Of a stretch of 29,166 nucleotides of DNA, positions 2,569 to 26,047 are shown in pieces. Positions within the stretch are counted from its first letter, which is position 1; every line of letters starts with the position of its first letter. The translations under genes and the position numbers were made by a program. A model generated the notes under the pieces. It had not been told where the DNA came from. It saw only the letters and a list, made by a program, of their open reading frames with translations, and searched no databases. The DNA is from an uncultured archaeon (lineage in GTDB: Archaea; Iainarchaeota; Iainarchaeia; Iainarchaeales; GCA-2688035): assembly GCA_964354805.1 (NCBI GenBank), contig CAYHBD010000033.1:1-29166 (forward strand), written 5' to 3'.

Positions 2569-2904
2569 ATGATTGGAGAAAAGCTGTTGAGCCAGAAAGC
2601 GGTTTCTTTGAGTGATGTAAAGGAATTGCTGAGTGAGAGGAAGAAGGAAAAGGATTTAACATACGAGCAGGATTTGACTTCGAAATATGCCAAGCGTTTC
2701 TGCAAGCTGAGCCCAGGCGAGGCTGAAAAGCTGCAGAACGAGCTCGGCAAAATCCCTGAATTGAACGATGTTTTGGCTGCGAAGATCTCTGATTTGCTGC
2801 CAGAGCGGATGGAAACACTGCAGTTGCTGGTCCCAAAGGAAGCAAAGGTAAGCGATGAGGCAGTACAGAAAATTCTTGCCTTGTGCAAAAAGTTCAGGAA
2901 ATAG
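2569..2904 (+). CDS. rpoF: DNA-directed RNA polymerase subunit Rpo4 (RpoF)
   Basis: MIGEKLLSQKAVSLSDVKELL, LTYEQ, YAKRF, AAKISDLLP; position after rpl21e. Confidence 0.93.
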   Translation: MIGEKLLSQKAVSLSDVKELLSERKKEKDLTYEQDLTSKYAKRFCKLSPGEAEKLQNELGKIPELNDVLAAKISDLLPERMETLQLLVPKEAKVSDEAVQKILALCKKFRK

Positions 2905-2985
2905 TTTGTTGGGGCAGTGCAGAAAACCAGTTTTTTGTGCAAAAAGTTCAGGAAATAGTTTTTGGGTTCCTTTTGGAAATAGTTT
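2854..2985 (+). repeat. 54-bp tandem duplication of the rpoF 3' end plus a partial third copy
   Basis: 2854-2907 vs 2908-2961, last 27 nt identical (TTGTGCAAAAAGTTCAGGAAATAGTTT); GGAAATAGTTT again at 2975. Confidence 0.9.
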
Positions 2986-3029
2986 TTTTTGTTTGGGTAG
3001 TTTTGGGAATTTTTTTTAGAGGGTTGGTT

Positions 3030-3596
3030 ATGCTGAATGAAGAGAGAGCCTTGGTATTGGACTATCTGCATCAGGGAAAGTCAGAAAGCTTTAAGAGCGA
3101 GCCCTTGGTGCAGCTGCTCGGGGAGCAGTTCTTTACTCTGCTTGAGGCCATTCCAAAGGGCGAATTAAAGGTTTTGGAGAGCGTTTATGTTGGCAAGGAG
3201 CAGAGGGATAAGATTGACCACATCAAGAGAAGGATCAGCAGCGGTGAATTGACAAGCACTGCTTCTGCCGAGCTGGAGAAAGCGATTGAGAAAATTGTTT
3301 TGCAGGACAAGCAGCGCTTTTTGCAGTTCTTTAATTCAGCCGGGCCAATTTCTCTCAGAAGGCACCAGCTTGAATTATTGCCTGGGTTTGGGAAAAAGCA
3401 CATGCACGACCTTTTGAATGAAAGGCAGAAAAAGCCTTTTGAGTCATTTGATGACCTTATTGCAAGGGTCAAGCTGCTGCCAGATCCGATCAAGGCAGTT
3501 GTCAAGAGGATTGAAATGGAACTGCAGGACGAAGACCTGAACCATTACCTTTTTGCTAGGCCTCCTGCAAAGGAACAACAATTCGGCAGAAGATGA
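3030..3596 (+). CDS. DUF655 family predicted RNA-binding protein (COG1491)
   Basis: EERALVLDYL, FFTLLE, RHQLELLPGFGKK, PFESFDDL; standard position between rpoF and ksgA. Confidence 0.92.
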   Translation: MLNEERALVLDYLHQGKSESFKSEPLVQLLGEQFFTLLEAIPKGELKVLESVYVGKEQRDKIDHIKRRISSGELTSTASAELEKAIEKIVLQDKQRFLQFFNSAGPISLRRHQLELLPGFGKKHMHDLLNERQKKPFESFDDLIARVKLLPDPIKAVVKRIEMELQDEDLNHYLFARPPAKEQQFGRR

Positions 3597-3721
3597 ATGC
3601 AGGGACTTTTGGGCAAAGCTGCAGTAAATGGCGTAATTGGCAGAAGATGAATTTTTTTTGATTGGGCAAAGCATTGGATGTTATTAAGCCCTGTTAATGG
3701 AAACAAATTCGGCAGAAGATG
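3580..3721 (+). repeat. Three copies of the DUF655 3' end
   Basis: GGCAGAAGATGAAT at 3585 and 3639 (offset 54); AATTCGGCAGAAGATG at 3580 and 3706. Confidence 0.85.
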
Positions 3722-3733
3722 GGTATTCTCTTT

Positions 3734-4555
3734 ATGTCAATTTTAAACGAATTGCAGAGCCTGATGATTCAATACAGGTTCAGGCCTAACAGGAAGCTTG
3801 GCCAGCACTTCATTGTAAAAGAAAGCGTGCTTGCCCAAATGGTTGAAGCAGCGGAGCTGAAAGCAGGCGACACTGTTTTGGAGATCGGTGCCGGAACAGG
3901 CTTTCTCACGAGGGAATTGCAAAAGCACTGCAGTGTTGTTGCAGTTGAACTGGATGAAAGGCTTTGCATGCTGCTTGAAAACGAATTGCCTAAAGAGAAT
4001 CTGCAATTGGTTAAGGGCGATTTTCTTGCTGTTGAACTGCCTTCTTTCAACAAGGTTGTTTCTCTGCCGCCTTATTCAAAAAGCAGCGCAATAATGTTCA
4101 GGCTGTTCCAATGCCCTTTTGAATTGGCTGTCCTTGTTTTCCAGAGGGAGTTCGCTGAAAAGCTGCTGGCATTGCCTGGATTTGTTGAATACAATGCCCT
4201 GAGTGTTTTGGCACAGTATCGCTTTGATGTGAAAATGCAGCAGAGGGTTCAGGCAAGCGCTTTTTTCCCGAAGCCAGAGGGAGACAGCTGCATTGTGAAA
4301 ATGGTTAAAACAGAAAAGCATGGCAAAGTAGTGGACGAAGCCGCTTTTACTGTATTCATCAAGAGTCTTTTCAGGTACCAGAACAAGAACCTTCGGAATG
4401 CTCTGGTTCACAGCTTTCCTTTCATAAAAAAAGAAATGCGCTTGAACGAAGCAAAATTCAATGAAAAAATTGCCGCTTTGCAAATGCATGATGTCAAAGT
4501 GAACCTGATTTCAGTGAAAGAGTTCGTGCAAATATTCAATGAATTGGTGAAATAA
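3734..4555 (+). CDS. rsmA: 16S rRNA adenine dimethyltransferase KsgA/Dim1
   Basis: LGQHF, VLEIGAGTGFLT, VSLPPY, FQREFAEKL, FFPKP. Confidence 0.95.
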   Translation: MSILNELQSLMIQYRFRPNRKLGQHFIVKESVLAQMVEAAELKAGDTVLEIGAGTGFLTRELQKHCSVVAVELDERLCMLLENELPKENLQLVKGDFLAVELPSFNKVVSLPPYSKSSAIMFRLFQCPFELAVLVFQREFAEKLLALPGFVEYNALSVLAQYRFDVKMQQRVQASAFFPKPEGDSCIVKMVKTEKHGKVVDEAAFTVFIKSLFRYQNKNLRNALVHSFPFIKKEMRLNEAKFNEKIAALQMHDVKVNLISVKEFVQIFNELVK

Positions 4556-4577
4556 TAAATTTCTTGAAAGATTTAAA

Positions 4578-6332
4578 TTACCCTCGCAAAGACATGTTGT
4601 CAAATATTATTTCTCCGGAAGAGCAGGTGTAGATATGACCAATTGTGATATGAAATCGTGAAATTGTCACATTGGGTTGGGTTGTAAACGTTGTTGAAAG
4701 AGTTTGCCAATCTGAGCTCGCGTAGTGATCAGGAGTGAAATGACCAACAACATACTCCCAATCAGAAGTGTACATGATAAAACCAATTCTAACATATGTG
4801 CACCTCGAGACTGCCTGATTTATTACTTTAAATTTGGTTTCAAATTCATAAGTGGTGTTTGGTTTAACGAGTAAGCCATAGTAATAGTAATGTCCCCAAG
4901 GTCCAAGAACTGTGTTCTCGATATTTTTTAGTTCATAGTCTCCACCAGTACAATTCATTGCATAGTTTCCTTCAAATGCATTGTTGTTATCTATCTGGCA
5001 AGTGCCAACCCCAGCTGATTTCATCCATACGAACCCATCTTCAAATGTGCCATCAACTGGGAAATAATTCCCAGTGGGATAACAGATTCCATCCCAGCAG
5101 GACTTGTCGGTTCCACAACTGGTTCCATCAGCAACGTTTGTGTGAATGATGCCTGTATTTTCGTCGCAAGAATCAATTGTACAAGGGTTGTTATCGTCCC
5201 AATTCAAGTCATCGCAGGAAAGACATGCGCCATTCTGACACCATAAACCCATTCCGCAATTTGTGCCATCCAGTTGATTAGAGTATTGGCATTCACCAAA
5301 ATTGCATGAATCAATTGTGCATGGGTTCCTGTCGTCACAATTCATGTCTGCACATAAGTTTATGCAAACCCCATTTTGGCAGACGCTATTAGGACCGCAT
5401 TGCTGACCCTCTCGCCAACTTACGTGTTGGCACAATCCATAGGTGCAGTCGTCTAATGTGCATTGGTTTCTGTCATCGCAGTCAATACAGTTGTTAACAC
5501 AAATGCCATTTTGACACCAACAATTTGCATCACTGATGTAGGTATTATCATCTACGCCTGTACATACATTTTCAATTATTACCAACCAGTAGTGGTCTGC
5601 ACTTAGTTTTCCATCCGACGCGATTACGTTTAAGTCGTGTTCACCACTTTTTAATCCGTTTGAATTTAGAATAAACTGGTTTCCATCGCCAACATTGTTT
5701 CCATTCAAAAACCAAGTAATTATTAATTCGTCGCCATCAGGGTCAGATGCAGTTATTGAAAACAATTGGGTTTCTCTTTCAGAAAGAGTTACAATTTTGT
5801 CTAAGGGAAAGCTTGATTCTATTACTGGCGGCCGATTTTCAACAAGAGCAGGTGCCACGTAAACTATTTTTGTTTTTTGATTATTTGCCCAATTTACATC
5901 CTCCCCAAATGGTCGAAAGGTTGCTGTAATTGTGGTGTCTCCTTCGATGCCAAGTCTTCCGCTTGTAAAAGTTATTACCCTAATTTCGTTTGTAGCTAAT
6001 TGGTCATCAGGGCTTCCTGGTATTGCTTGGCTTATTTGTCCAATTCCATTAGAATATACAATATCCACTTGGCCTGAAAACGAAGTGGGCACTCCCAGGT
6101 TTTTAATGGTTACTTGAATCTCTAATATGTCACCAACTTTCGGTTTTTCTGGGGAAATGTTCATGTCAATGACTGCTAAATCATATCCTAACAGTGGGCA
6201 GTCGTGTGGACAATTATCGTGTGTTTCGCCTCTTTCGCACACGCCATTTCCGCACAAGGTTGGCGGTACGATACAGCCACTCAAATAAATAGCTGAAACC
6301 AACAGTCCAACCAGAAAAATTGCCCTGCTCAT
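4578..6332 (-). CDS. Cys-rich multidomain surface lipoprotein (CARDB/Ig-like, Dictyostelium-type Cys repeats, CBM4/9-like C-terminus)
   Basis: Lipobox LSGC; CGNGVCERGETHDNCPHDC; DLAV..TIKNLG..NN CARDB motif; NRPPVI..ASDPDGD Ig-like domain; three xDDxNxCTxDxC repeats; DGTFE..VKPNTTYEF..IIFDNMSL. Confidence 0.8.
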   Translation of the reverse strand: MSRAIFLVGLLVSAIYLSGCIVPPTLCGNGVCERGETHDNCPHDCPLLGYDLAVIDMNISPEKPKVGDILEIQVTIKNLGVPTSFSGQVDIVYSNGIGQISQAIPGSPDDQLATNEIRVITFTSGRLGIEGDTTITATFRPFGEDVNWANNQKTKIVYVAPALVENRPPVIESSFPLDKIVTLSERETQLFSITASDPDGDELIITWFLNGNNVGDGNQFILNSNGLKSGEHDLNVIASDGKLSADHYWLVIIENVCTGVDDNTYISDANCWCQNGICVNNCIDCDDRNQCTLDDCTYGLCQHVSWREGQQCGPNSVCQNGVCINLCADMNCDDRNPCTIDSCNFGECQYSNQLDGTNCGMGLWCQNGACLSCDDLNWDDNNPCTIDSCDENTGIIHTNVADGTSCGTDKSCWDGICYPTGNYFPVDGTFEDGFVWMKSAGVGTCQIDNNNAFEGNYAMNCTGGDYELKNIENTVLGPWGHYYYYGLLVKPNTTYEFETKFKVINQAVSRCTYVRIGFIMYTSDWEYVVGHFTPDHYASSDWQTLSTTFTTQPNVTISRFHITIGHIYTCSSGEIIFDNMSLRG

Positions 6333-6501
6333 TTATCTTATTTTTATCCACCAACCATTATTTTATTATTTCGTTCAATTGATTGTGAAAACAATTTTTT
6401 CTTTGTTTCTTTTTTATTTTTCTTGCCATAATCTTCTCAATAATCAAATTCCATACAACAATTAAAGAGAGAAATCCTTATTTTTATATTCAATGGGCAG
6501 T

Positions 6502-8058: not shown

Positions 8059-8236
8059 ACAGTATTTAATTCTTTCTTGCAAATCTTCAACTGTTTTTGA
8101 ATTTAATTCGAAAGCAGTATTTAATCTTTTAATTCTTTTTTTCCACAGCTGCTGCACTTTTTTGAATTTAATTATATTTCATTTATTTTTTTTGTTTAAT
8201 CCTTTCTGACTTTTTCAAGTGCCTGCAGCACTTTTT
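8059..8236 (-). repeat. Degenerate tandem repeats, including a decayed copy of the LOG 3' end
   Basis: AATTAAATTCAAAAA...ATTAAATACTG occurs twice; AAAAAGTGCAGCAG...GATTAAA mirrors LOG end AAAAAGTGCTGCAG...GATTAAA at offset about 75. Confidence 0.55.
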
Positions 8237-8744
8237 CAACCAAGCGCTTTGGGTCACTGTCATACACGATTGGCGTTTTTATTTCGCGCTTTAGGACATC
8301 CTGCTCGTATTCTTTTATCTTGTCAGCAAAGCCGCCGCTTCCAAGCAGAACACCAATTGGCCTTTCTTCAACGTAAGCAACACTGAACTCGCACATTGTG
8401 CCAATTTTGCCGCCGATTACAATTATTGCATCACAGCTTCTTACAAGGACAACGTTTCTCCCTGGGAAACCAAAGCCAGTGAAAACAACAGCATCGCAAG
8501 CATCAGTCGGATACTTATATTTCTCCCTGTGCTCTTCCTCATTCGCAGCTGGGCTCACTCCAACAACAAGCGCCCCATTTTCCTTCGCTCCCTTTGCAGC
8601 AGCCAAAGGCAATCCAATTGTTGCGCCGTAAAAGAAAATGCAATCATGCTCTGCGATTGCAGCCCCCAGCTGTTTTGCTTTTTCAAGCAGCTCTTCTGAA
8701 TGCTTTCCCAAAGCGCTGCCCATTACGCCGATTCTTAGCTTCAT
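8196..8744 (-). CDS. LOG/TIGR00725 family nucleotide-binding (phosphoribohydrolase-like) protein
   Basis: IGVMGS, AAKGAKENGALVVGVSP, GRNVVLVRSCDAIIVIGGKIGT.CE. Confidence 0.88.
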   Translation of the reverse strand: MKLRIGVMGSALGKHSEELLEKAKQLGAAIAEHDCIFFYGATIGLPLAAAKGAKENGALVVGVSPAANEEEHREKYKYPTDACDAVVFTGFGFPGRNVVLVRSCDAIIVIGGKIGTMCEFSVAYVEERPIGVLLGSGGFADKIKEYEQDVLKREIKTPIVYDSDPKRLVEKVLQALEKVRKD

Positions 8745-8755
8745 AAAAAACAGTT

Positions 8756-9463
8756 TCATTCCAGTTTTTTGCACAATTCTTTTGCTGCCTTTTTCATGTC
8801 AGGCGCTTCATACAGTGCCCTGCCCACAATTGCGTGCCAGCTGCTGCCTGCTGCTTTCGCGCTTTCACTTATTTCACCGCCTTGAGCAACCAGGCCAGGG
8901 CTGTACAGCACTGGCTTTGCTCCCTTTGATTCAAGGAATTGCTTGTAGAAAGCGATCTTCTCCGGCTTGTTTCCCGGAACAACGAAATCCTGCACGCCTA
9001 ACTGCGCTGCAATTTCATACATTCTTTTTGGCGCCTCACTTAAAATGAATCCATTGTCGTTCTGCAGGAAAGCAGCATGAGTCATTTCACCGCCGACGAT
9101 TACGCCTAAGCCTGCTTTTTGGGCAGCTTGAATGAATGCTTTTTCTGTTTCAGGCCCTGATAATGGGAAAAAAATCACTGCATCAACGCCCGCATTTTTG
9201 CAGACTACCGCAAACTTTTCCGCGACATCCGGAATGTCTGTCGCTGCCTTCTGGTGGTCGTAAATAAGCGGTGCTTCAATGAATTTTCTTGCAGTTTTCA
9301 CCAATTTTGGCAAACCATAGCGCAGCGCAAGCTGAAAGCCGATTTTGTAAGCGCCAATCCCTTTTACATCAGCTGTTTCTTTTACCAGATGCTCGAATTT
9401 TTTCAAGTCAGCAATATCGCATGCTGGGATAATGCTTCTGTCTGCTTCAATTATTTTCTTCAT
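8756..9463 (-). CDS. pyrF: Orotidine-5'-phosphate decarboxylase
   Basis: IIPACD, YKIG, DHQKAATDIP, VVPGNKP, SPGLVAQGG, AIVGRALY. Confidence 0.93.
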   Translation of the reverse strand: MKKIIEADRSIIPACDIADLKKFEHLVKETADVKGIGAYKIGFQLALRYGLPKLVKTARKFIEAPLIYDHQKAATDIPDVAEKFAVVCKNAGVDAVIFFPLSGPETEKAFIQAAQKAGLGVIVGGEMTHAAFLQNDNGFILSEAPKRMYEIAAQLGVQDFVVPGNKPEKIAFYKQFLESKGAKPVLYSPGLVAQGGEISESAKAAGSSWHAIVGRALYEAPDMKKAAKELCKKLE

Positions 9464-9548
9464 TTCTGCATCACCTTTTCTGACTCCTGCTTTTTGCTCA
9501 ATTTTATTGCTTTAATTAATTTTTTCCCTTTGTCCTCATCTTCTTCTT

Positions 9549-9857
9549 TTATTTCTTCCTCAGCAGCGTAATTAATTGCTTTACCTTCCGCTCAAGTGTT
9601 ATTTTAAGCATTTCTTGTTCTGCTTCTCTCTTAAGGGCACCCGCACCGAGTCGGTCTGCGAACATAGAAGCAGCCAAACCCTTGCCCTGCCATTCCTTTT
9701 CTCCCTTCAGAAGATTTTTTTGCTTTGCTTTTAATTCATCAATTTCTTCTTGCAGACGAGGTATCTGTATTTCAAGCATTTTCCTTTTGATACTTTTCAG
9801 CAAAGCATGCCTCAAAGCAGTATTGGCTCGTCTTATTCTTCCAATTTTCTTAATCAT
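9549..9857 (-). CDS. Orphan basic coiled-coil protein (102 aa)
   Basis: ATG overlaps pyrE stop (ATGATTAA) with SD GGTGA upstream; [12 protein letters not shown].. Confidence 0.65.
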
Positions 9858-10488
9858 GCCCTTTTTCACCAGCGTGCTTTTCACTCCATTGCTGTGGCGC
9901 TGCGAAGTATTCCTTTATTGAATCAAATTGCTCTTTGCTGATTTTTTTGTTTTTAAGCAGAATCTGCAGCATTTCGCTTACCGTGAAAACGGTGTGCAGC
10001 TGGTAGCCTTTTTCCAGCAGTTCCTTTTTGCCGCCCTGCTCCCTGTCAACCAATACAACAATGTCCTTTACTTTCAAGCCAGCTCCCTCCAACGGAGAGA
10101 TTGCCTCAAACTTGCTTGCCCCAGTTGTAATCAGGTCATCGTACACAAGAATTGTTTCCCCTGCCTTGAATTCACCTTCAATCTCCCTTTTTGTTCCATA
10201 ATCCTTCTGCTCTTTTCTCGGGTAAATCATTGAATAGTTTCCCTGCAGGCTCACAGCTGTTGCAATTGGGATTGCTGCATAGGGAATTCCGGCAATCCTG
10301 TCAAAATGCAGTGGCTTTGTAATTTTAATCAGCTCGCCTGCAACATTGCGCAAAACATTTGGATAAGATACAAGCACCCTCAAATCAATGTAAATCGGGC
10401 TCAGCAATCCGCTCTTCAAAGTGAACAAGCCGAATTTGACCGCGCCGATTTCGAACAACTCGCTGCACAATTTTTCTTTACTGTTCAT
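9850..10488 (-). CDS. pyrE: Orotate phosphoribosyltransferase
   Basis: [45 protein letters not shown]; SD AAGGGGG before ATG 10488. Confidence 0.96.
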
Positions 10489-10519
10489 TAATAATCCCCC
10501 TTTTAAGTCATCTAGATTC

Positions 10520-10942
10520 TTATATGATTCTTTTTTCTGCATTTCTAATTGTTTTTTCCTCAGTATCAATTAAAAATGTCCCAAGATCTCTTCTTTCCTT
10601 GCTGGTCAGGTCCTCCCCTGTGCACACCTTAAAATAAACATAGCGCTCATTTGAACTAACCCTGTCTACGATATAAGTGTATTGCCCAACGCTGGTACTT
10701 TCATGCATTTGCAGTTTAGCCCAAACCGCTTGTGTAATTTTTGGAAACCAGCCACTGCCAATTGTTCTTAATTCAACAACCATGTGCAATGCGGGTATTC
10801 TATTTTCAAGTGCTTTTTTATTTTCTCCACTTAACCTTCCTTGTCTCGTTAGCTTTCTCAGTTGCCGCTCTCTTTTTTTCGCCGTTCTCATCTTCTTTGC
10901 GATAGATTCCCCCGAATATCCCCTGTGTTTGCCTCTCCCCAT
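10520..10942 (-). CDS. Orphan basic protein (140 aa)
   Basis: ORF with AAGGGG SD before ATG 10942; MGRGKHRG...[12 protein letters not shown]; AT-rich. Confidence 0.7.
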
Positions 10943-10999
10943 TTTTAATTGCCCCTTAATCAATTAAGCTTCCCTGAAACAAAAGCTTTTCCTTTGAAC

Positions 11000-11456
11000 T
11001 CATTGCTCATCCTGCCTCTTTACAACCTTTCTCTGTAATCCGGAAGAACGGATTATTCCTGCTCCAGTGATTCTACCCCCCCTTAAGAAGCCTTAGAGTT
11101 GTCTTCCTTTTTTGTTCGGCCTCTCGCGCCCTCTTGTTTCCAGTTGGTCCACGAAACCTTATAGACATTGTTATCCCCACCTTTCCTTTGGATTCATTCA
11201 ACAACTCCCTAATAATTCTGACTATTTTGTTAACTTAAATTCCGGTTCTTGTTCCATCTGTTTCGCCTTTTGCAATCTTTTTCCTTTGCTTAACTTCATC
11301 TTGAATCATTTTTTTTGCTAAAGGGCTTGTAACCTTGCTGGCTTGGTTTGCAACTCTTTGCGTTTCTGCATCAAAGCCACTTGTCAGCTGTTGTTGGACC
11401 CGCTTTTTAGATCTCCGCGCAGTCCACCAATTCCGAATCCTTAATCTAAATTTCAT
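11000..11456 (-). pseudogene. Decayed or split basic orphan (73-aa ORF 11235-11456, in-frame continuation to 11073, frameshift at a G7 run)
   Basis: After TAA at 11235 the same frame continues VNKIVRIIRELLNESKGKVGITMSIRFRGPTGNKRAREAEQKRKTTLRLLKGG*; removing one G from 11076-11082 extends it to TGA at 11000. Confidence 0.45.
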
Positions 11457-11528
11457 TCAATTACCCCCTTGAACTCTTTCAAATTAATTCAGCCTTCATT
11501 TAATAAAACTTTTTTTTATGCAAATTAA

Positions 11529-12815
11529 TTAAACAACATTTCCATTTTGCATTGCAACTTTTCCTGCAACAATTGTCTGCACTGGCGAGCCCTGCAATTC
11601 CCAGGTTGCGAACGGGCTCCAGTTGCACTTGGTCTTAAGCCTGCCGTTCTTTATTGTCTGCTTCTTCTGCAAATCAATCAGAGTGAGGTCAGCATCATTT
11701 CCTGTTTTAATTTCTCCCTTGCTTTCAAAGCCGTAAAGCTTTGCCGGATTGCTGCAGCAAAGTTCAACCACTTTGCGCAACTCAATTTTTTCCTTGTTCA
11801 CTGAATCCAAAAGCAAGGGCAGCATTGTTTCAATACCGGGAATGCCGCTTGGCGCCTCCCAGTAACTCTTTTCCTTTTCCTCTTTTGTGTGCGGGGCATG
11901 GTCTGTTGCAATCAAATCAATAACGCCCTGCCTGATTCCCTTCCATAGCGCATTAACATCCTCTTTGCCCTTCAAGCTTGGATTCATTTTAGCAAAATTC
12001 CCCAGCTTCTCTGTTGCTTCCTCTGTCAAAAACAGGTAGTGCGGCGCTGTTTCGCAGGTAATGCCATCCCTTGATTCCTTTGCCTCTTTAATCAATTCAA
12101 GTCCTTGCGCGCTGCTTACGTGCAGAATGTGCAGCCTGTTTCCAATCTCTTCCTGCAGCCTCAATGCTTTTTCTATTGCCTTTGCCTCTGCTTCGCAGGT
12201 CCTGATTTTTGAATGGTAGCGCGCGTGATTCCACCCTTTCTCTTTTGCAATCGCGGTGTTCGCTTTTATTATTTCTTCGTCCTCTGCATGCACTGTTACA
12301 ATAATGCCCCTTTGTTTTGCAATTGAAAAAATCTTTCTCAAAATGTTTTCGTCAGTAACAAGCAGGTTGCCAGTGCTTGCGCCCAAAAAAACCTTGATGG
12401 AAGCAATTCCTTCAGCAGCCTGCAGTTCCTGCATGTTATCATTGCTTGCGCCAAAGTGAAAAGAGAAATTGCATTTGCTGTCAGCTTTTGCAATCTCGTT
12501 CTTTTGTAGCAGCGCTTCCCTTGTTGTGCAGCTTGGGTTGTTGTTCGGCATGTCAATTACTGTTGTAACGCCGCCTGCAACAGCCGCGCTGCTCCCTGTT
12601 TTCCAATCCTCTTTGTATTCCGCTCCCGGAACCCTAAAGTGCACATGGGCATCAATCAGCCCGGGCAGCAGAATCTTTCCCCTGCAATCAATCCTCTTTG
12701 GCGCATTCGCTGTCTGTTCGATTGCAGCAATCTTCCCATTTCGCACAAGAACGCTTTTCGGCTGCAGTTTTCCCGCAACGAAAACCAAAGCGTTTTCAAG
12801 AACAAAGTCCATCAT
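11529..12815 (-). CDS. pyrC: Dihydroorotase
   Basis: PGLIDAHVHFRVPG, GGVTTVIDMPN, KMNPSL, IATDHAPH; SD GGAGG before ATG 12815. Confidence 0.95.
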   Translation of the reverse strand: MMDFVLENALVFVAGKLQPKSVLVRNGKIAAIEQTANAPKRIDCRGKILLPGLIDAHVHFRVPGAEYKEDWKTGSSAAVAGGVTTVIDMPNNNPSCTTREALLQKNEIAKADSKCNFSFHFGASNDNMQELQAAEGIASIKVFLGASTGNLLVTDENILRKIFSIAKQRGIIVTVHAEDEEIIKANTAIAKEKGWNHARYHSKIRTCEAEAKAIEKALRLQEEIGNRLHILHVSSAQGLELIKEAKESRDGITCETAPHYLFLTEEATEKLGNFAKMNPSLKGKEDVNALWKGIRQGVIDLIATDHAPHTKEEKEKSYWEAPSGIPGIETMLPLLLDSVNKEKIELRKVVELCCSNPAKLYGFESKGEIKTGNDADLTLIDLQKKQTIKNGRLKTKCNWSPFATWELQGSPVQTIVAGKVAMQNGNVV

Positions 12816-12838
12816 TACTGCCTCCATTGCACAAATTC
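12815..12838 (-). repeat. Relic copy of the pyrK 3' end directly upstream of pyrC
   Basis: GAA TTT GTG CAA TGG AGG CAG TAA (EFVQWRQ*) vs pyrK end GAG TTT GCT GAA TGG AGA CAG ACT TAA (EFAEWRQT*). Confidence 0.75.
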
Positions 12839-12845
12839 ATATTTT

Positions 12846-13415
12846 TCAATTATTTTTTATGCCAAAATCTATTCTAATTTTTTTCACTTCTTTTCTGGTT
12901 TCGAGAAAAAACCTGAGAAACTGCTTCATCTTTCTTTTGCTGCCAAGCTCTTCTACAAGCTTTTGCTGTAAGCCCAACAAAGAGGGGTGGCGCAGGAACT
13001 CTTCCCTTGGTTTGTCCCAATCCATTAACTGGGCTGTTTTTTTAAATACTTCTTGCACAATTCCCTGAATTCTTTTTACTTTGTCCTGGTCTTTTTCTGT
13101 GTTAATTATCCCCATCCTGTTCAAAGCGGCTTTAGCGCTAATGTCATTCATTGCTTCACTCATTTTTGGCCGAGCCCTTTTAATTACAACCCCGGCATCA
13201 TTCTGTGAAAAGGTTTTCTTGCCAGTTTCTTTCAACAATGCCTGTGCCTCATCCCAAATTATTCTTCTACAAACCATGCTAACCAAGTTTGCTGAAGGCC
13301 CGCGTTGTCCCCACAATCTGGCTTTACCTCTTGCCCTCTTCACCGCTTTCTTTTTGGCCCTCTGCCCCGCTGTTAAGCCAAAGCGCTCAGCAATTTTTGC
13401 AATTCTTCCCTTCAT
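12846..13415 (-). CDS. Orphan basic protein (189 aa)
   Basis: ATG abuts pyrK stop; MKGRIAKIAERFGLTAGQRAKKKAVKRARGKAR.. Confidence 0.75.
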   Translation of the reverse strand: MKGRIAKIAERFGLTAGQRAKKKAVKRARGKARLWGQRGPSANLVSMVCRRIIWDEAQALLKETGKKTFSQNDAGVVIKRARPKMSEAMNDISAKAALNRMGIINTEKDQDKVKRIQGIVQEVFKKTAQLMDWDKPREEFLRHPSLLGLQQKLVEELGSKRKMKQFLRFFLETRKEVKKIRIDFGIKNN

Positions 13416-14231
13416 TTAAGTCTGTCTCCATTCAGCAAACTCTTTGATTGAAACAGGTTTACCGCACTTCAGCAGCGCGCTTGCGCCGAACTCAGGCATC
13501 TGCCGCAGTTGTGCGCTGTTGAAAACAGGGCCGTCCTTGCATACGAGGAATTTTCCGATTGCGCAGCTTCCGCACAGGCCCATGCCGCCGCACCGCATGA
13601 ATCGTTCTAAATTCAGCTGGCACTGCACTTTGTGCTTCTCGCACAGCTCAAACACTTTTTTCAGCATCACTTCTGGTCCGCAGCCAAAAACCATGTCAAA
13701 TTTCTCTTTTGCAAGCAGCCTTTGCAAGGGGGCAGTAACAAACCCTTTTTCACCAAGGCTGCCATCATCAGTGGTTATGTAGAAGTTGGCTGATAGTTTG
13801 CCAAGCCTTTTGTTGAAAAGGCATTCTTTTCCTGTTTTTGCTCCGTTTATTATTGTTGTTTTTATTTTCTTTTTTTGCAATTCTTCAGCAAGCAATAGAA
13901 TTGGGGCTGCTCCGCAGCCGCCTGCAACAATGCAGGCTTTCTTTGCTCCCTTAATATCAAATCCTTTTCCATATGGGCCCCTTATTCCTAACTTATCGCC
14001 CTCTTTTAATTCAAACAATTTTTCCGTGAATTTACCTTTTTGCTGAACTGTTACAGCGCATTCCTTCCCTGCTGCCGTGAGCGTGAATGGCTTTTCATCA
14101 ATGCCAGGCAGCCAAACCATTGCGAACTGGCCTGGCGCTGCTTGCATTGCGTAATCCAGGTAAAAAGTCTTTATGCTCGGCGTTTCCTGCACAATTTTTT
14201 TTATTGCTGCAATTGCTGGCTTTTCAGTCAT
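13416..14231 (-). CDS. pyrK: Dihydroorotate dehydrogenase electron transfer subunit
   Basis: PGQFAMVW, GIRGPYGKGF, VAGGCG, CGPEVM, ERFMRCGGMGLCGSC...VCKDGPVF; SD GGTGA. Confidence 0.95.
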   Translation of the reverse strand: MTEKPAIAAIKKIVQETPSIKTFYLDYAMQAAPGQFAMVWLPGIDEKPFTLTAAGKECAVTVQQKGKFTEKLFELKEGDKLGIRGPYGKGFDIKGAKKACIVAGGCGAAPILLLAEELQKKKIKTTIINGAKTGKECLFNKRLGKLSANFYITTDDGSLGEKGFVTAPLQRLLAKEKFDMVFGCGPEVMLKKVFELCEKHKVQCQLNLERFMRCGGMGLCGSCAIGKFLVCKDGPVFNSAQLRQMPEFGASALLKCGKPVSIKEFAEWRQT

Positions 14232-14919
14232 TTCTTTTTTCACCCAGCGCTGTTTTTACAATGTTTTCAATTAACTCAATGCCTTTTTTTGAGTCAGCTG
14301 GCAATTTTTCTGCAAGCTTTTTAATCATTGTTTCGCCGATCATTGCTGTCCTAAGCAATTGGGTTTCGTTCAGGGATTCTGCATGGCCTGGTCCTCCAAA
14401 TGTAGCTTCTCTCCTTATGATTGCAAGGTTTGCTCTTGCGTTCTCTTCTATTGTTTCTAAATATTTCTGAATTTCTGGTTTGCTTTCCCTGAATTCGCTC
14501 CGCGCTTTTTGTATTATTTGCACAGCAGCTGAAAAAACGTTTTCTGTTTTTTCTATCGAGGTGTGCTCGGTAAAAGCCCTCCATACCGCTATTCTGATTG
14601 TTTCAGCATCCGCAATCAATTGAAACATTGCTTTCTCACCCTGTGTTGCAATGTCTCCCCTTTTGCCTGTTTTCCAGAGCCCCTGCAAAAAGGCTTTCTG
14701 CAAACCAAGCCTCAAAATTGCTCTGCCGCCCGGGCTTTCAGCCAATTTGTGCTGCTGTATTATTTCATCAGCCAAATCATGCAGGCGCATTTTTCTCATC
14801 ATTTCTCCAATGCCATGCGCCAGAGCGCCTTTGTCGCTTTTAAATTTAATTATGCCTCTTTTTATTGACTTTCTTCCGCGGCCCCTGCTTTGCCCACCAG
14901 ACATTTGCCTTTTAGCCAT
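14224..14919 (-). CDS. Orphan helical protein (231 aa) with basic N-terminus
   Basis: ATG overlaps pyrD stop (ATGGCTAA) and its stop overlaps pyrK start (ATGACTGA); MAKRQMSGGQSRGRGRKSIKR.. Confidence 0.75.
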   Translation of the reverse strand: MAKRQMSGGQSRGRGRKSIKRGIIKFKSDKGALAHGIGEMMRKMRLHDLADEIIQQHKLAESPGGRAILRLGLQKAFLQGLWKTGKRGDIATQGEKAMFQLIADAETIRIAVWRAFTEHTSIEKTENVFSAAVQIIQKARSEFRESKPEIQKYLETIEENARANLAIIRREATFGGPGHAESLNETQLLRTAMIGETMIKKLAEKLPADSKKGIELIENIVKTALGEKRND

Positions 14920-15826
14920 GCGTTGCACCCCTTATCTCATCCAAGCTTTTCACTCCGTTCTTTTTCATCCACTCTTCCATTTCCCTGCAGACTTTTTTGA
15001 AAACGCCAATTCCATGGTAATAAACGCCGCTGCCAATTCCAACAGCTGTTGCCCCTGCTTCAATGAATTCAATTGCATCCAATCCTGAATTAATTCCGCC
15101 CATCCCAAGGACTGGAATCTTCACTGCCTCGTATATTTGGTAAACGCATCTCAGTGCAATGGGCTTTATTGCCGGTCCTGATATTCCTCCGAATTTGTTT
15201 GCAAGCAATGGCTTTCTTGCTTGCGTATCAATCAGCATTCCTGGACCGAGAGTGTTTATTGCGCAGATTGCATCAGCGCCTGCTTTCTCGCAAGCGCTTG
15301 CAATAGCGGCAATGTCCAATGCCTGCGGTGTAAGCTTTGGCATTATTGGAATGCCTGCAGAAACTTTTTTCACTGCGCTTACAACCTCTCCAGCAACAGC
15401 ACAGTCAACCCCGAATGGCTGCCCTTGGCCTTTGCTGTGCGGGCAAGACATGTTTAATTCAATCATTGCAGGCTTGTGCTGGGCAACAAATTCAGCAATG
15501 GCTGCATATTCCTCAACGCTGTTTGCGTAAACTGATGCAATAACAGGAATATTGCATTTTGCAAGGGCTGAAAGCTCTTCCCCCAGATTTTTGTAGCCTG
15601 GGGAAGGCAGCCCAACGGCGTTTATCAGGCCGTGCTCCCATTCAATTACTGTCGGGTTTGCATAGCCGTCTTTTTCGCAAGGACCAATGCTTTTTGTTGT
15701 TACTGCGCCTGCTCCGCCTTCCTTTACAACGCGCAGCATCAGTTCAGCTGTTGTTCCAAGAATGCCTGAAGCCAGAACAGTTGGGTTGCTCAACCTAATT
15801 CCTGCAAAATTTGTCTGCAATTGCAA
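14912..15826 (-). CDS. pyrD: Dihydroorotate dehydrogenase family 1B catalytic subunit (TTG start, 15826 or 15829)
   Basis: NPTVLASG, GAVTTKS, ELNMSCPH, AINT, GGISGPAIKPIAL, GMGGI. Confidence 0.96.
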   Translation of the reverse strand: MQLQTNFAGIRLSNPTVLASGILGTTAELMLRVVKEGGAGAVTTKSIGPCEKDGYANPTVIEWEHGLINAVGLPSPGYKNLGEELSALAKCNIPVIASVYANSVEEYAAIAEFVAQHKPAMIELNMSCPHSKGQGQPFGVDCAVAGEVVSAVKKVSAGIPIMPKLTPQALDIAAIASACEKAGADAICAINTLGPGMLIDTQARKPLLANKFGGISGPAIKPIALRCVYQIYEAVKIPVLGMGGINSGLDAIEFIEAGATAVGIGSGVYYHGIGVFKKVCREMEEWMKKNGVKSLDEIRGATHG

Positions 15827-15873
15827 CAAAACCCGCTAAGAATTGAGTTTGATTATTTATTTAAAGATAGCGC
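15824..15873 (-). promoter_or_regulatory. pyrD-operon promoter/leader; TATA probably shared with divergent rpe
   Basis: GCGCTATCTTTAAATAAA...GGGTTTTGTTG; 37/50 identical to the pyrB upstream region. Confidence 0.7.
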
Positions 15874-17055: not shown

Positions 17056-18032
<977 letters not shown>

Positions 18033-18177: not shown

Positions 18178-19308
18178 GTGCTGTTAGTGCAGCAAGTAGT
18201 TCAAAGAGCAGTTAAGCGGGCAAAGGCTTTGCCTGCAGTGAAAAGAAAGCCGATAAAGGCAACTCAGGATAACGAAGAGCTAATTAAGTTGCTTGAAACA
18301 GCCAAGGCAAAAATCAGGGTTGTTGGAGTGGGAGGCGGAGGCTGCAACACCATTGAGAGAATGACCGAAATCGGAATAACGGGAGCGGAAACATTTGCAG
18401 TCAACACCGATGCCCAGGATTTGCTTAACACTGTTGCCGACAAAAAGGTTTTAATCGGCAGAAACTTAACAAGAGGGCTTGGCAGTGGCTCAGACCCTAG
18501 CGTTGGGGAAGGCGCTGCAAAGGAAAGCCAGGAAGAGCTTGAAAGTGTTTTGGAAGACAGCGATTTGCTTTTCATCACATGCGGCTTGGGCGGCGGCACT
18601 GGAACAGGTGCTGCGCCTGTTATTGCCGAAATCGGAAAGCACATGAAAGCGCTTACAATAGGGGTTGTCACAATTCCCTTCACTGTTGAAGGGAGAAAGA
18701 GAATGGAGAACGCTTTGGGCGGCCTGGGGAATTTGCGCAAAAACACTGACACTGTTATTGTCATTCCAAACGACAAGATTCTGGAGATTGCCCCTGATTT
18801 GCCTGTGAATGCAGCATTCAAGGTTGCTGACGAAGTCCTGACAAATGCAGTAAAGGGAATTACCGAAATGGTTACAAAGCCCGGATTAATTAACTTGGAT
18901 TACGCTGATTTGCGGACAATTTTAAGCAGGGGCGGTGCAGCAATGATTGGCCTTGGAGAAAGCCACAGCACTGAGCAAGGAGAAGCTAGGGCGTTGGAAG
19001 CAGTTGAAAACGCTTTGACATCGCCGCTTTTGGATGTTGACATAAGCTGTGCAAACAGGGCCCTGATAAATGTAATCGGCGGTGCAGACATGACCCTGAG
19101 GGAAGCCGAAATGATTGTTGAAACAGTCAGCAGCAAGATAAGCGACAACGCCCACATAATCTGGGGAGCAATGATTGACGAGAACATGTCGAAGAACCAG
19201 ATTCAGGCAATGGTTGTAATAGCAGGCGGAAAGTTCCCTTACTTGGAAGACACTGACAAAGTCAATTTGGCAGAGCCAATCGATTTGGGAATAGAATTTA
19301 CTGGGTAA
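18178..19308 (+). CDS. ftsZ: Cell division protein FtsZ (exact start uncertain)
   Basis: VVGVGGGGCN, NTDAQDL, GLGGGTGTGAAP, PGLINLDYAD; ftsZ-secE-spt5 synteny. Confidence 0.98.
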   Translation: MLLVQQVVQRAVKRAKALPAVKRKPIKATQDNEELIKLLETAKAKIRVVGVGGGGCNTIERMTEIGITGAETFAVNTDAQDLLNTVADKKVLIGRNLTRGLGSGSDPSVGEGAAKESQEELESVLEDSDLLFITCGLGGGTGTGAAPVIAEIGKHMKALTIGVVTIPFTVEGRKRMENALGGLGNLRKNTDTVIVIPNDKILEIAPDLPVNAAFKVADEVLTNAVKGITEMVTKPGLINLDYADLRTILSRGGAAMIGLGESHSTEQGEARALEAVENALTSPLLDVDISCANRALINVIGGADMTLREAEMIVETVSSKISDNAHIIWGAMIDENMSKNQIQAMVVIAGGKFPYLEDTDKVNLAEPIDLGIEFTG

Positions 19309-19360
19309 AGGGCTGCCAAAGGGAAGCCGATTGATCTGGGGAATAGAGTTTACTGGATGA
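19273..19360 (+). repeat. Tandem synonymous copy of the ftsZ 3' end
   Basis: CCA ATC GAT TTG GGA ATA GAA TTT ACT GGG TAA vs CCG ATT GAT CTG GG(G)A ATA GAG TTT ACT GGA TGA. Confidence 0.88.
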
Positions 19361-19447
19361 AATAGTGAAAATTGGCTAAAGCAAAACCCACTTAAAACTT
19401 TTTCTTTATTCTTTTTAATAATTCTTTACATGATTCAGGTGGTTTGA

Positions 19448-19642
19448 ATGCAATTAAACATTAGTTCAACGTTGCGCAGCTTTGTTGATTCGAGCAAGCG
19501 TGTCTTGATTATTGCAAAGAAGCCAACTTGGGAGGAATTCCAGGTAATGGCAAAGGTCACTGGAATAGGGGTAATAATAATCGGGGTAATCGCCTACGTT
19601 ATTTACCTGATTTTCGCGTTTAGCGGAATCGGCGGCGCTTAG
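19448..19642 (+). CDS. secE: Protein translocase subunit SecE/Sec61-gamma
   Basis: RVLIIAKKPTWEEF..AKVTGIG plus TM helix; SD AGGTGG. Confidence 0.95.
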   Translation: MQLNISSTLRSFVDSSKRVLIIAKKPTWEEFQVMAKVTGIGVIIIGVIAYVIYLIFAFSGIGGA

Positions 19643-21640: not shown

Positions 21641-21687
21641 GGCGTGAACTGAGGGAAGCATAAGCTGAATAAAAAAAGGTGAAAGTA

Positions 21688-22640: not shown

Positions 22641-22934
22641 ATGCAATACGTGTACGCTGCATTGCTTTTGCACAGCGCAGGGCACAAAGTTGAAGAGCCG
22701 GCTGTAACAAAGGTAATGGAGGCAGCCGGAGCAAAGCCAGACAGCGCTAGGGTGAAAGCCCTGATTGCTTCTCTGAAAGACGTGAACATTGAAGAGGCAA
22801 TAAAGAAAGCAGCTGTCCAGCCAGTGGCTGCAGCAAAAGCAGAAGAGAAGCCCAGCGCAAAGAAAGAAGAGAAAGCGCCAGAAGGCAAAACAGAGGAAGA
22901 AGCAGCAGAAGGTTTAAGCAGCCTTTTCGGCTAA
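22641..22934 (+). CDS. rpl12: 50S ribosomal stalk protein L12 (P1)
   Basis: MQYVYAALLLHSAG...EEEAAEGLSSLFG. Confidence 0.97.
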   Translation: MQYVYAALLLHSAGHKVEEPAVTKVMEAAGAKPDSARVKALIASLKDVNIEEAIKKAAVQPVAAAKAEEKPSAKKEEKAPEGKTEEEAAEGLSSLFG

Positions 22935-23008
22935 GCCTTTTTGCCTTCGGCAAAAAGCCTTGGGAAAAAAGCCTTCGGTTGATTAAACCACTTTTTTCCT
23001 TTTTTTTT
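22933..23008. repeat. REP-like palindromic repeat followed by T-tract (probable operon terminator)
   Basis: AAGCCTTTTTGCC-TTC-GGCAAAAAGCCTTGGGAAAAAAGC; near-identical copy at 29088. Confidence 0.75.
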
Positions 23009-23068
23009 GCACGCCTTTCAGGGCTTGCGCAAGTTATTTATACAACCTTTTACTAATTAATAACTGCC

Positions 23069-25411
23069 ATGCGCAAGCTTGTTTGCCTGTTCCTCTTGTT
23101 GCTTTTTTCTGCAAGCGTTGCAGCAGTAATAGAGAAGGATTCGCTTAAGATTTTTGCAGTAACAGAACAGGGCAATGCACTAAGCGCTGATTTGACCCTG
23201 GAAATAAAGCCAGGCAGCGGAAATGTTTGGAGCAGTGTCGAGCCATTGGTCGGCACATCAACCCAGACAACAGAGAAGCTTGCTGTCCAGATTGCGAAAA
23301 ATTACAGCAAGGAAGTTGGCAGCTTTGATTATTTTTTTGGCATTAAAAGCGATGCCTCGCTGGTTGAGGGGCCGAGCGCAGGCGCAGCAATGACTCTGCT
23401 TACAATAAGCATGCTGCAGGACAGGAAAGTTCCGGATTATGTCGGCCTGACAGGAACCATTACGCCGGATGGGAGTGTTGGCAGCGTTGGCGGGGTTTTT
23501 GAGAAAAGCAAGGAGGCGGCAAAGATCGGGATGAAGCTTTTTATGATTCCTGCCGGCGAAGCAAAGCAGACAGTGAAATTACCGGAAGGAGTTAAGTCCA
23601 TAAATCTGAGTTCCTATGCAAAAGAGCAGTGGAGCCTGCTGGTTGTGGAAGTAAAAGACATTGATGATGTGCTTCACTTTGCTTTTGCCGACCTTGAATC
23701 AATTGACGTGAATGCTGAGGAAACTGTTTTGCCTGATTTTGTTCCGAATGCAATTTCCTTTAACCGGCAGTTGCAGCCAATGGATTCAATTGTAAGGAAA
23801 TTTATTGCTGAAGCTGATGAAGGAATAAACGGCGCTAGAAGCGCTTTAAGCGGAACTTTGCTGAACGATCCTGCAGTTGTTGATGTTTTGCTGCAGCAGC
23901 TGAGCAGCAGCGAAAAAATGCTTGCCGAGGCAAAAATTCTGGCTGACCAGAACTATTTGTACAGCGCAGGCAATGATGCTTTCCTTTCAATTGTTTACAG
24001 TGCTTTTGTGCGCGATATTGCCGATGAGCCGCAATTGATTAACCCAACATCGACATCGCTTGATTCAAAGGCAGGCGAATTAAGCAGGCAAATTAACAGC
24101 CTTGCTTTTGATTTGAACAGGTTCATTGCCATTGACCAATTCGAGTGGCATGTTGCAGCAAAGCAGCGCTTAAGCTGGGCAAAGCTGAATATTGACAAGC
24201 TGCTTGCAAAGGATGAAATCATTATAACAATTGACGGCAGTGCAATTGATGAGCAGCGCTTGAGCGATTTGCTGGATTACCAGTTTGCTGTTGCATGGTA
24301 TAATGCAGCAGAGGATTTCTTTGATATAACAAAAAGCAGTACAAAAAGAATTCAGGCTGACAGGCATTTTGCCGATGCTGTTGAGAGCAATATTGCTGCA
24401 GCGGAAAAAAACCTGGCAGAATTGCCTGTTGCTGACACAGAGGATATTGTCAGGCGCTTGGATGCGTCAAAGCTTGAAAAAGAGCAGGGCTGGTTTGAGG
24501 CGGCCTTGTTTGATTCGGCTTCCGCCCTGGGTTTAACAGATGCCCAGCTTTTAATCAAAGGCAAGAGCCTGGATGAATTAAGGGCAGAACTGGAGCAGAA
24601 AATCAGCGAATTGGAAGTGAAGATGCATGAAAGCAATCAGAAATTTGTCTGGGCTTCGCTTTACCTTGACCATGCACGCTTTTTTTTGCAGAGCGCTGAC
24701 TTCTATTTGCAGAACGGCCAGAGCAGCAGGGCAGTTGAAAGCGCAGGCAGTGGCATTGCCCTGGCTTTCATGGCTGAAAGCGCTTTTGATTCTGCTGAGC
24801 AGGCAGGGCAATATTTCGCTACGCTGCCAGAATCAGCCTTTTTGCCAGGGCCGTTCATTGAGCCTTTTGATGCATCAAAGCTTTACCCTTTCATTGCACT
24901 TTTCATTGTTTTGGGCGCAGTGGTTGCCTTGATTCTGCTGTTCGCTGTTTTAAGCACCAGGGTAAGCCGGCTTAGGCATGCCTCGCTCAAAGGTGAAATA
25001 AGCAGAATCAGGTTCGAGCAGAAAAGGCTGCATAGAATGCTTTCAGCAGGGCAAATAAGCGGGGAGCGGTGCAAGAAACTTGATTCGCTTTACCAGAAGC
25101 GCCTGCGGGAATTGCTTGATGAAAGCGAGCAGTTGAGCAGCACCTTTGTCGAACTGGATTTGAGCAAAAGCAAATTGTTTGCTTTTGAGAGAACGGTGAA
25201 AAGGCTCAAGCAGCAGTCCAGGAAAGGCGAAATAACAAAGAAAGATTTCACTGCAACAATGCAATTCTGCGAGAAGAGAATCAACGCACTTACGAAAGAG
25301 ATAAGCGCAGAAATACAGCGCCTGCAGCTGGAAAAAAAAGCAATCAAAAAAAGCGTTGCTGTTACGGAAAAGGAAAACAGCGGAATACGGAAAGGAAAAA
25401 TAAAAGAATAA
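23069..25411 (+). CDS. Membrane-anchored Lon-like S16 serine protease without AAA+ domain (COG1750-like)
   Basis: Signal peptide; VEGPSAGAAM (Ser) and GGVFEK (Lys) dyad; long helical region; TM helix; basic C-terminal coiled coil. Confidence 0.88.
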   Translation: MRKLVCLFLLLLFSASVAAVIEKDSLKIFAVTEQGNALSADLTLEIKPGSGNVWSSVEPLVGTSTQTTEKLAVQIAKNYSKEVGSFDYFFGIKSDASLVEGPSAGAAMTLLTISMLQDRKVPDYVGLTGTITPDGSVGSVGGVFEKSKEAAKIGMKLFMIPAGEAKQTVKLPEGVKSINLSSYAKEQWSLLVVEVKDIDDVLHFAFADLESIDVNAEETVLPDFVPNAISFNRQLQPMDSIVRKFIAEADEGINGARSALSGTLLNDPAVVDVLLQQLSSSEKMLAEAKILADQNYLYSAGNDAFLSIVYSAFVRDIADEPQLINPTSTSLDSKAGELSRQINSLAFDLNRFIAIDQFEWHVAAKQRLSWAKLNIDKLLAKDEIIITIDGSAIDEQRLSDLLDYQFAVAWYNAAEDFFDITKSSTKRIQADRHFADAVESNIAAAEKNLAELPVADTEDIVRRLDASKLEKEQGWFEAALFDSASALGLTDAQLLIKGKSLDELRAELEQKISELEVKMHESNQKFVWASLYLDHARFFLQSADFYLQNGQSSRAVESAGSGIALAFMAESAFDSAEQAGQYFATLPESAFLPGPFIEPFDASKLYPFIALFIVLGAVVALILLFAVLSTRVSRLRHASLKGEISRIRFEQKRLHRMLSAGQISGERCKKLDSLYQKRLRELLDESEQLSSTFVELDLSKSKLFAFERTVKRLKQQSRKGEITKKDFTATMQFCEKRINALTKEISAEIQRLQLEKKAIKKSVAVTEKENSGIRKGKIKE

Positions 25412-25503
25412 GCACAAATTGGCTGTCGGGCAGAAGGAGGGCATCTTCCAGCCATATTAGAAAACTTTATTAATCAGGTTAAACAATCTATTTCTTGGTT
25501 TAA

Positions 25504-25971
25504 ATGATTGCTGAATGGCTGATGATTGAAAGGCTGCTGATCAGTGCTGTTATGGGCGGCCTGATTGGCGTTGAAAGGCAGATGCACGAAAAGCCCGCTG
25601 GCTTGAGAACCCATGTGCTTGTTTGCATGGGCGCAACCCTTTTCACTCTTCTCTCATTGTCTTTTTCCAACTCGGACGGATCAGCAGTTGATGTCAGTAG
25701 GGTTGCTGCAGGTGTTGTAACAGGAATCGGCTTTTTGGCTGCAGGCAGCATTTTCAGGGAAAAGGAAAGAGTCAGGGGCCTGACAACTGCAGCAGACCTT
25801 TGGGTTATTGCTGCAATCGGCCTGAGCATTGGCTTGGGCTATTACAGCGTTGCCGTTGTTGCAACAATTATTACTTTGATTATTTTAATGATAGGCAGGG
25901 TTTTTGATAATTATTTGGACAGAAAGGCAATGACCCTAGAGCAAAAAAACAAGCCGCCTTTTTTTAGCTGA
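25504..25971 (+). CDS. MgtC/SapB family membrane protein
   Basis: GGLIGVER..KPAGLRTH, RVAAGVVTGIGFLAAG, GLTTAA. Confidence 0.93.
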   Translation: MIAEWLMIERLLISAVMGGLIGVERQMHEKPAGLRTHVLVCMGATLFTLLSLSFSNSDGSAVDVSRVAAGVVTGIGFLAAGSIFREKERVRGLTTAADLWVIAAIGLSIGLGYYSVAVVATIITLIILMIGRVFDNYLDRKAMTLEQKNKPPFFS

Positions 25972-26047
25972 CTTCAAGCTGTTTTACCGTTGCCCTTGGC
26001 TAAAGTCGGCAGCAGTTCAGCTGACTTCAAGCTGTTTTACTGTTGCC
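25964..26047 (-). repeat. Tandem copy of the smc 3' end
   Basis: GCA ACA GTA AAA CAG CTT GAA GTC AGC TGA vs GCA ACG GTA AAA CAG CTT GAA GTC AGC TAA; offset 53. Confidence 0.92.

Follow-up and report, generated by a model that had tools for sequence, protein, structure and literature searches.

Stranded Copies of Gene Ends in an Iainarchaeota Genome, Probable Scars of Recombination between Diverged Strains

About one gene in 20 of an uncultured archaeon of the Iainarchaeota (Diapherotrites) has, some 50 bases downstream or upstream, a second, stranded copy of its end, which is most likely the trace of frequent gene exchange and not of a dedicated machine. The stretch under study (the window) is contig C33, 29,166 nucleotides long, of the 1.38-Mb metagenome-assembled genome (MAG) of this archaeon, which is 88.5% complete. 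The copies are read here as junction scars of recombination between diverged strains, joined about 50 nt out of register; the probability of this reading is estimated at about 0.62. Such scars would allow recombination to be counted and polarized in a lineage of uncultured archaea with no known route of DNA exchange, and a specific intermediate is suggested by their modal length. They seem to account for the enlarged spacers of the genus and hint at how orphan genes enter coupled operons. Moreover, they mislead start-codon calling and can pass for misassembly. No paper describing such tail copies in DPANN archaea was found by literature searches, which had limited coverage of subscription journals.

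In the following, G000 designates the studied MAG, C-numbers its contigs, G001-G012 the genomes of relatives and L-numbers the comparison contigs.

Tail Copies in the Window

The window genes confirmed by Pfam are rpoF, the DUF655 gene, ksgA, AMP phosphorylase, an SLOG protein (LOG), pyrF, pyrE, pyrC, pyrK, pyrD, ftsZ, rpl1, mgtC and smc. The best matches of the FtsZ protein are records of Ca. Iainarchaeum/Diapherotrites. Genes were called with our own hexamer model; hence, stops are more reliable than starts. P values for the window give the fraction of ~1,200 other gene-downstream regions with an equal or better score.

A first-pass annotation, made from the sequence alone, had reported second tail copies of rpoF, DUF655, ftsZ and smc at similar offsets, and each of these was recovered with P < 0.001. 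On the plus strand, the rpoF tail with its stop (2856-2904) is repeated as a complete tandem unit at 2910-2958 (offset 54), followed by a third, decayed piece at 2975-2982. A sister lineage is represented in JGI, ENA and Logan assemblies and is ~92-94% identical in DNA; five of its contigs (L118-L122) are devoid of the newest rpoF copy, and a sixth (L123) contains it. The DUF655 tail and its two copies occupy 3564-3722 of the same strand, the copies ending at 3650 (offset 54) and at 3722 (offset 126), the latter just 5' of the probable ksgA start at 3734. These copies are common to the sister contigs L118-L123, and none was detected in family-level relatives. The ftsZ tail and copy (19274-19360, plus strand; copy at 19325-19360, offset 51-52) are distinguished by six substitutions, all silent, and one extra G. 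This copy was not found in the 61 nt available of L140, nor in L037-L049. For smc, on the minus strand, 22 unrelated bases (25995-26016) separate the tail (26017-26047) from its copy (25964-25994, offset 53), and the two differ only by ACA/ACG and TGA/TAA. The smc relic overlaps the stop of the convergent mgtC. It is also present in the sister contig L139, where 170 nt of repeat-rich DNA were later inserted into it.

Among the weaker copies proposed earlier, that of LOG stands (8066-8236, minus strand, P = 0.0008), with decayed copies at ~8121-8162 and 8066-8077 and a 12/12 copy in the sister contig L119; those of AMP phosphorylase (P = 0.18) and rpl1 (P = 0.056) were not significant. Folding of four window loci was no better than that of shuffled sequences.

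The tail copies are not misassemblies, because unitigs from other studies cross both copies. An independent Logan unitig (X2 record 9, 2637-3208) spans both rpoF copies with 2 differences and no gaps, and another (X1 record 7, 18984-19587) spans both ftsZ copies with 6 differences and no gaps. Furthermore, independent JGI, ENA and Logan assemblies share some copies, including those of DUF655 and smc in the sister lineage, and show copies of their own. A chimeric origin is, thus, refuted for rpoF, DUF655, ftsZ and smc.

Genome-Wide Distribution, Spacing and Gene Heads

When the last 45 nt of each of 1139 genes were compared with the next 300 nt, tail copies were found for 74 genes, against 0.6 in shuffled, 5 in mid-gene, 2 in pre-tail and 1 in reverse-complement controls. 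This bears out the expected enrichment over shuffled and gene-internal controls, and the 5 mid-gene matches against 74 at tails indicate that the copies are depleted in coding DNA. The offset had been described as nearly constant; a mode near 50 is indeed present, but the value is not fixed (median 54, quartiles 50-67, range 30-140), and the offsets are random modulo 3. Simulated detection was 70% for units of 50 nt and still 59-64% for those of 34-40 nt, so the scarcity of short units is real.

Gene heads show the mirror image: about 30 genes carry an upstream copy of their first 15-50 nt, mostly at offsets of 41-66. In boundary-anchored scans, head similarity begins at the ATG (identity rising from 0.45 to 0.93) and tail similarity ends at the stop (falling from 0.91 to ~0.5). 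An unanchored repeat scan revealed the same clustering at gene boundaries, and TATA-containing, promoter-like DNA and hairpin intergenic DNA are also repeated at the same spacing. The idea of an insertion system specific to gene tails is, therefore, not supported. The clearest mirror-image stack is located at C43:11806-11970, where three stacked 55-56-nt head copies precede one gene.

With a single pipeline, the copy rate is 5.3% in G000 and 12/86 in sister regions, a biased figure as these regions were chosen around known sites. Elsewhere in the family, 5/158 (G004), 2/48 (G001), 2/16 (G012), 1/75 (G006), 0/78 (G009) and 0/68 (G003) were obtained, which corresponds to 0-4% in the better-sampled other genera, and most of the offsets likewise lie near 50. 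The rate in other Iainarchaeota is 8/1035 (under 1%). Comparison of 99 orthologous gene ends revealed 15 copies in G000 and 19 in the sister, 8 of them common to both, and copies are absent from the orthologous sites compared in other genera of the family. Relative to empty sites, the net gain is 30-90 nt and the resident end is kept.

Allelic Character and Polarity

A duplicate that decays in place is expected to show ~33% silent differences, as calculated from measured values of the neutral share (0.23) and of omega in tails (0.22). In young pairs (at most 15% divergent, n = 34), 54 of 87 differences are silent (62%), an excess with P~4e-4 and 3e-5 in two bins. Orthologous tails of G000 and the sister give a similar share, 137 of 235 (58%). 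The tally of synonymous and non-synonymous differences thus marks many copies as allelic and not as cis duplicates. In older pairs, the silent share goes down to 32-36%, the pattern expected of an allelic relic that subsequently decays.

Eleven unshared events could be polarized against the other genome; in this small, hand-curated and non-blind set, the working copies hold 18 silent and 1 replacement changes (5.7 and 4.1 expected) and the relics 9 and 6 (5.7 and 18.6 expected). The sister lineage also provides empty sites in which the relic corresponds to the functional tail, a comparison that the first-pass annotation had suggested. The match is exact at truD: the relic has 0 differences from the working tail of the sister (vs. 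3) and continues into the sister's downstream DNA, and the working tail of G000 carries three silent changes with 33 unrelated bases behind it. The DP2 relic of the sister is nearer to the tail of G000 (2 vs. 7 differences). The rpS9 relic of G000 retains the stop codon and downstream DNA of the sister, with the same polarity as truD. At cdc6, the polarity looks reversed, the foreign tail having come together with new downstream DNA. At C9:108355, precisely a site with different downstream genes in G000 and the sister, the relics of the two genomes show coding-like differences. A TGA overlap at the joint is visible at this site only. Tail replacement by allelic DNA does occur, because the working tails at the sister's empty sites match the downstream relics. 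Several downstream relics are the resident tail, displaced by a new tail together with foreign bases.

Spacers, Cargo and the pyr Operon

Complete tandem repeats make up no more than 5 of the 39 young units, rpoF being one of them; the others contain 12-57 unmatched bases. Overall, matched parts measure 16-53 nt and unmatched parts 0-57 nt. Near-identical copies parted by unrelated bases are found at ITPase (27/27), rpS9 and smc. No motif is common to the spacers, and the targets have no consensus. At three sites, the spacer is a dispersed hairpin repeat. This repeat was considered as a driver and rejected; it is rather a passenger, since, of the 13 copies that the search pattern matched, no more than 1-2 have a flanking repeat. 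An inverted, template-switch origin of the spacers was attractive at ftsZ and smc, but genome-wide enrichment is absent (P~0.3). A phage source of the smc spacer was also rejected, as it relied on a single chance match.

The earlier proposal of a unit made of an allelic tail with or without cargo holds for the genome, and the window shows the cargo form at pyrK only. Among distant matches (141-3000 nt), 11 tails score strongly, against 0-1 in shuffled and 4-6 in internal controls; several are paralogues, and about four represent tails of 63-79 nt left stranded beyond inserted genes. These cargo cases with a displaced tail lie at C42:13494 (9 silent and 2 replacement differences), C9:28419, C2:15189 and C9:26133. 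A 1.9-kb insert of the window, between ksgA and AMP phosphorylase, has no duplicated ends. It corresponds to the gene of a 584-aa secreted protein with Dictyostelium-type repeats (4578-6473), an insertion relative to L118-L122.

In the pyr operon, tail copies of pyrD, pyrK, pyrC and pyrE had been placed beyond orphan genes. That of pyrK is supported; those of pyrD (DNA P = 0.64, ortholog-profile P = 0.09) and pyrC (P = 0.9 and 0.65) are not, and that of pyrE is borderline (P = 0.22 and 0.04, uncorrected), which leaves three of the four not significant. On the minus strand, the working pyrK tail (EFAEWRQT and stop, 13416-13445) is followed by a 189-aa orphan, the candidate cargo (12846-13415), and then by the displaced tail (EFVQWRQ and stop, 12815-12844), which overlaps the pyrC ATG (DNA P = 0.01, ortholog-profile P = 0.002). 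The relic contains the Shine-Dalgarno (SD) sequence of pyrC (TGGAGG / GGAGG) and couples to the pyrC start, and this SD role may have helped to retain it. In the relatives G009, G003, G007 and G010, pyrK is coupled directly to pyrC. The 189-aa orphan has no convincing Pfam or Atlas match; a 33% homologue exists in G005, at the equivalent junction. The presumed pyrD copy is not a relic but rather the end of the orphan between pyrD and pyrK, a gene that is conserved in G001, G009 and G012 (30-46% homologues) and has a C-terminus of its own there. No usable Pfam or Atlas match, and no integrase or endonuclease domain, was obtained for the pyr orphans of the window.

Proposed Mechanism

The existence of the copies, their allelic nature, the polarity of several sites and the mirror-image heads are shown by the data, whereas the exchange event, the geometry of the joint and the filtering by selection are inferred, as follows. 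Incoming DNA of a relative would pair through a conserved gene and, where homology ends at the gene edge, the donor end would be joined out of register to the resident chromosome. At this joint, 0-50 nt of donor flank would be brought in, with ~15-55 nt left over from the end of the resident gene. The product would be, at gene ends, the working end, the donor flank and the stranded end and, at starts, the stranded head, the donor flank with its SD and the working head; the overlap would add up to about 50 nt. Joints would be harmless at gene boundaries only and would, hence, survive there. Scars may then stack and decay, and a donor flank would now and then be of sufficient length to include genes. 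The origin is likely to be mixed: some units would have started as plain tandem duplications (rpoF), and an old relic that pairs unequally with the working tail of a partner could refresh units.

Of the two routes suggested by the first-pass annotation, nothing points to the integration of mini-circles, and no dedicated enzyme was found; a joining akin to homology-facilitated illegitimate recombination (HFIR) is the best mechanism. A bolder extension is put forward tentatively, as it is rather improbable: the DPANN archaea of this family would resolve incoming DNA ends by an undescribed end-joining with a built-in overlap of ~50 nt, which would let short flanks, hairpin repeats and whole orphan or defence genes enter operon junctions independently of integrases and leave the neighbours unbroken.

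Several points weigh against recombination between strains. With all copies pooled, the silent share is 0.43 vs. 0.33-0.38, a modest and heterogeneous excess; in heads, it is 14/31 and not significant (P = 0.12). The polarized set has the size and curation described above, and the rpoF unit, repeated in full and in tandem, has decayed through non-silent changes. The similarity between spacer and flank is 0.41 against 0.32, and no donor genome was found whose spacer bases run on past the working stop. No match to ComEC (PF03772) was obtained in 21 family genomes, archaeal uptake routes not having been searched. Finally, classical HFIR deletes an amount of resident DNA about equal to the insert (~1 kb) and does not duplicate it (PMC3240628).

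Alternative Explanations

The copies could instead arise in cis, as microhomology-mediated tandem duplications (MTDs) of ~50 nt produced by slippage or unprocessed Okazaki flaps, purged from coding DNA and left to decay at gene boundaries, with no exchange involved. The complete repeats (5 of the 39 young units, including rpoF) are in agreement with this, as is the fact that heads, tails and promoters are all affected; archaea also have MTDs, coding DNA is depleted of them, and they increase when FEN1/Rad27 is lost (PMC13167724). Such duplication cannot, however, explain a truD relic identical to the working tail of another lineage, the 62% silent share, or the near-identical copies with unrelated bases between them (ITPase, rpS9, smc). 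In addition, FEN1, NucS, Hef/XPF, NurA and both DHH proteins (the second found by tblastn) are present, for which reason the loss of a repair gene was rejected as a cause. Duplication in cis is, thus, refuted as the sole cause and unlikely as the general one, but it is probably the source of some units.

Less likely still is an undescribed enzyme whose staggered cut duplicates 25-30 nt (Cas1/casposase-like), or an origin as cargo-less remnants of tail-replacing elements such as homing-endonuclease cassettes and integrative elements. The modal offset near 50, the scarcity of short units beyond detection bias, the same spacing in four other genera of the family and the existence of cargo-bearing cases would suit this explanation. 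On the contrary, no match to Cas1 (PF01867), reverse transcriptase or the TnpB zinc ribbon was obtained in the 88.5%-complete G000. Outside the window, this genome encodes two tyrosine recombinases and two IS200/IS605-like Y1 transposases, a type not known to generate long target duplications. The motif-less spacers of 0-57 nt, the targets without a consensus and the rarity of repeats flanking the sole recurring spacer, the hairpin repeat, also argue against it.

It is highly improbable that selection maintains the copies as functional elements, such as read-through or relay frames, suppliers of SD sequences or promoters, or switchable C-termini. The pyrK relic, with its SD and coupling, and the coding-like differences at C9:108355 are the examples in favor. 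Against them stand the rapid turnover (8 copies shared among 15 and 19, none at orthologous sites in other genera), offsets random modulo 3, the non-silent decay of older copies and the interruption of the smc relic in L139. A chimeric assembly of co-existing strains, which the MAG origin and the allele-like pairs might suggest, can be dismissed as barely conceivable in view of the gapless unitigs from other studies and the agreement of independent assemblies.

Comparison with Known Systems

HFIR has been described in S. pneumoniae, A. baylyi and P. stutzeri and is rare in E. coli (PMC3240628). A microhomology of 3-10 bp would be expected where its products are joined illegitimately. The joints proposed here resemble it in having one homologous end and one non-homologous join, in trapping foreign DNA and in needing no element enzyme. 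The donor allele would lie in the anchor, and the working copies at truD and DP2 indeed contain silent changes foreign to the lineage. They differ in that resident DNA is retained, with an overlap of ~50 nt at dozens of boundaries, in an archaeon without a ComEC match.

Some elements supply the gene that they enter with a replacement end, for example e14 and phage 21 at icd. Others are the yeast WHO elements at FBA1 (PMC7282813) and the mobile endonuclease open reading frames (ORFs) of fungal mitochondria (PMC3630166). The WHO elements and mobile ORFs also place a foreign working C-terminus before a stranded native one, with silent-biased differences and stacked relics, a configuration found here at truD, DP2 and rpS9 and apparently reversed at cdc6. 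They have, however, one or few targets and an insert-encoded endonuclease or integrase, whereas the present copies concern ~70 unrelated tails and ~30 heads, mostly with a non-coding spacer of 0-50 nt and with mirror copies at start codons.

MTDs are short direct repeats, depleted from coding DNA, neutral and expandable in copy number (PMC13167724, PMC8639346). Their depletion from coding DNA is shared by the copies, and a whole-unit repeat fits rpoF. A newborn MTD copy is, however, complete and identical, whereas the majority of young units in this genome are partial and allelic, with unrelated bases between the copies. In the transformation-induced merodiploidy of S. pneumoniae, alternative pairing in two registers leads to tandem duplication (PMC3784515). 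Such a mechanism could refresh existing relics, but it requires long repeats that already exist, and its duplications span 100-900 kb rather than 50 nt. Off-target integration by Cas1 or casposases would give a fixed length of duplication and insert; here, the matched parts vary from 16 to 53 nt and the unmatched parts from 0 to 57 nt, and no cas1 match was obtained in the 88.5%-complete genome. Insertion of a miniature inverted-repeat transposable element (MITE) or a repetitive extragenic palindromic (REP) element would leave a common element flanked by duplications everywhere, unlike the hairpin repeat, which is flanked at 1-2 of 13 copies.

Further Observations

A RecJ-like DHH/DHHA1 protein is encoded at C44:6220-7332 of G000, with a 27-aa in-frame insert just before the DHH motif. 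The insert is probably a hairpin repeat and is lacking in five relatives (in L212-L216). In most relatives examined, a PolX gene adjoins this gene. Upstream of smc (window 29081-29166), the dispersed hairpin repeat occurs twice, at a spacing of 59 bp, and the array of the sister is longer there. The insert in the smc relic of the sister (L139:7010-7200) includes an IS200/IS605-like hairpin and the dispersed hairpin repeat. In the rpoF relic (window 2918-2935 and L123:640-670), clustered changes perfect A-run/T-run hairpins in two lineages, which suggests quasi-palindrome template switching.

Most pyr junctions (window 9549-14919) hold orphans with basic N-termini, often translationally coupled, and the corresponding slots of other relatives are occupied by different genes. 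Runs X1 and X2, otherwise 98-100% identical to the window in many pieces, skip the LOG relic region (8081-8160) and contain a pyrC stretch with 29 differences (11953-12306). An empty allele and a mosaic tract, or a second organism, are possible explanations. In a close relative found in run X3, 1262 unlike bases occupy the place of the pyrF region (8732-9862). Lastly, a 50-bp repeat with a TATA-like box, 74% identical between its two copies, lies upstream of pyrD and pyrB (15824-15873 and 17983-18032).

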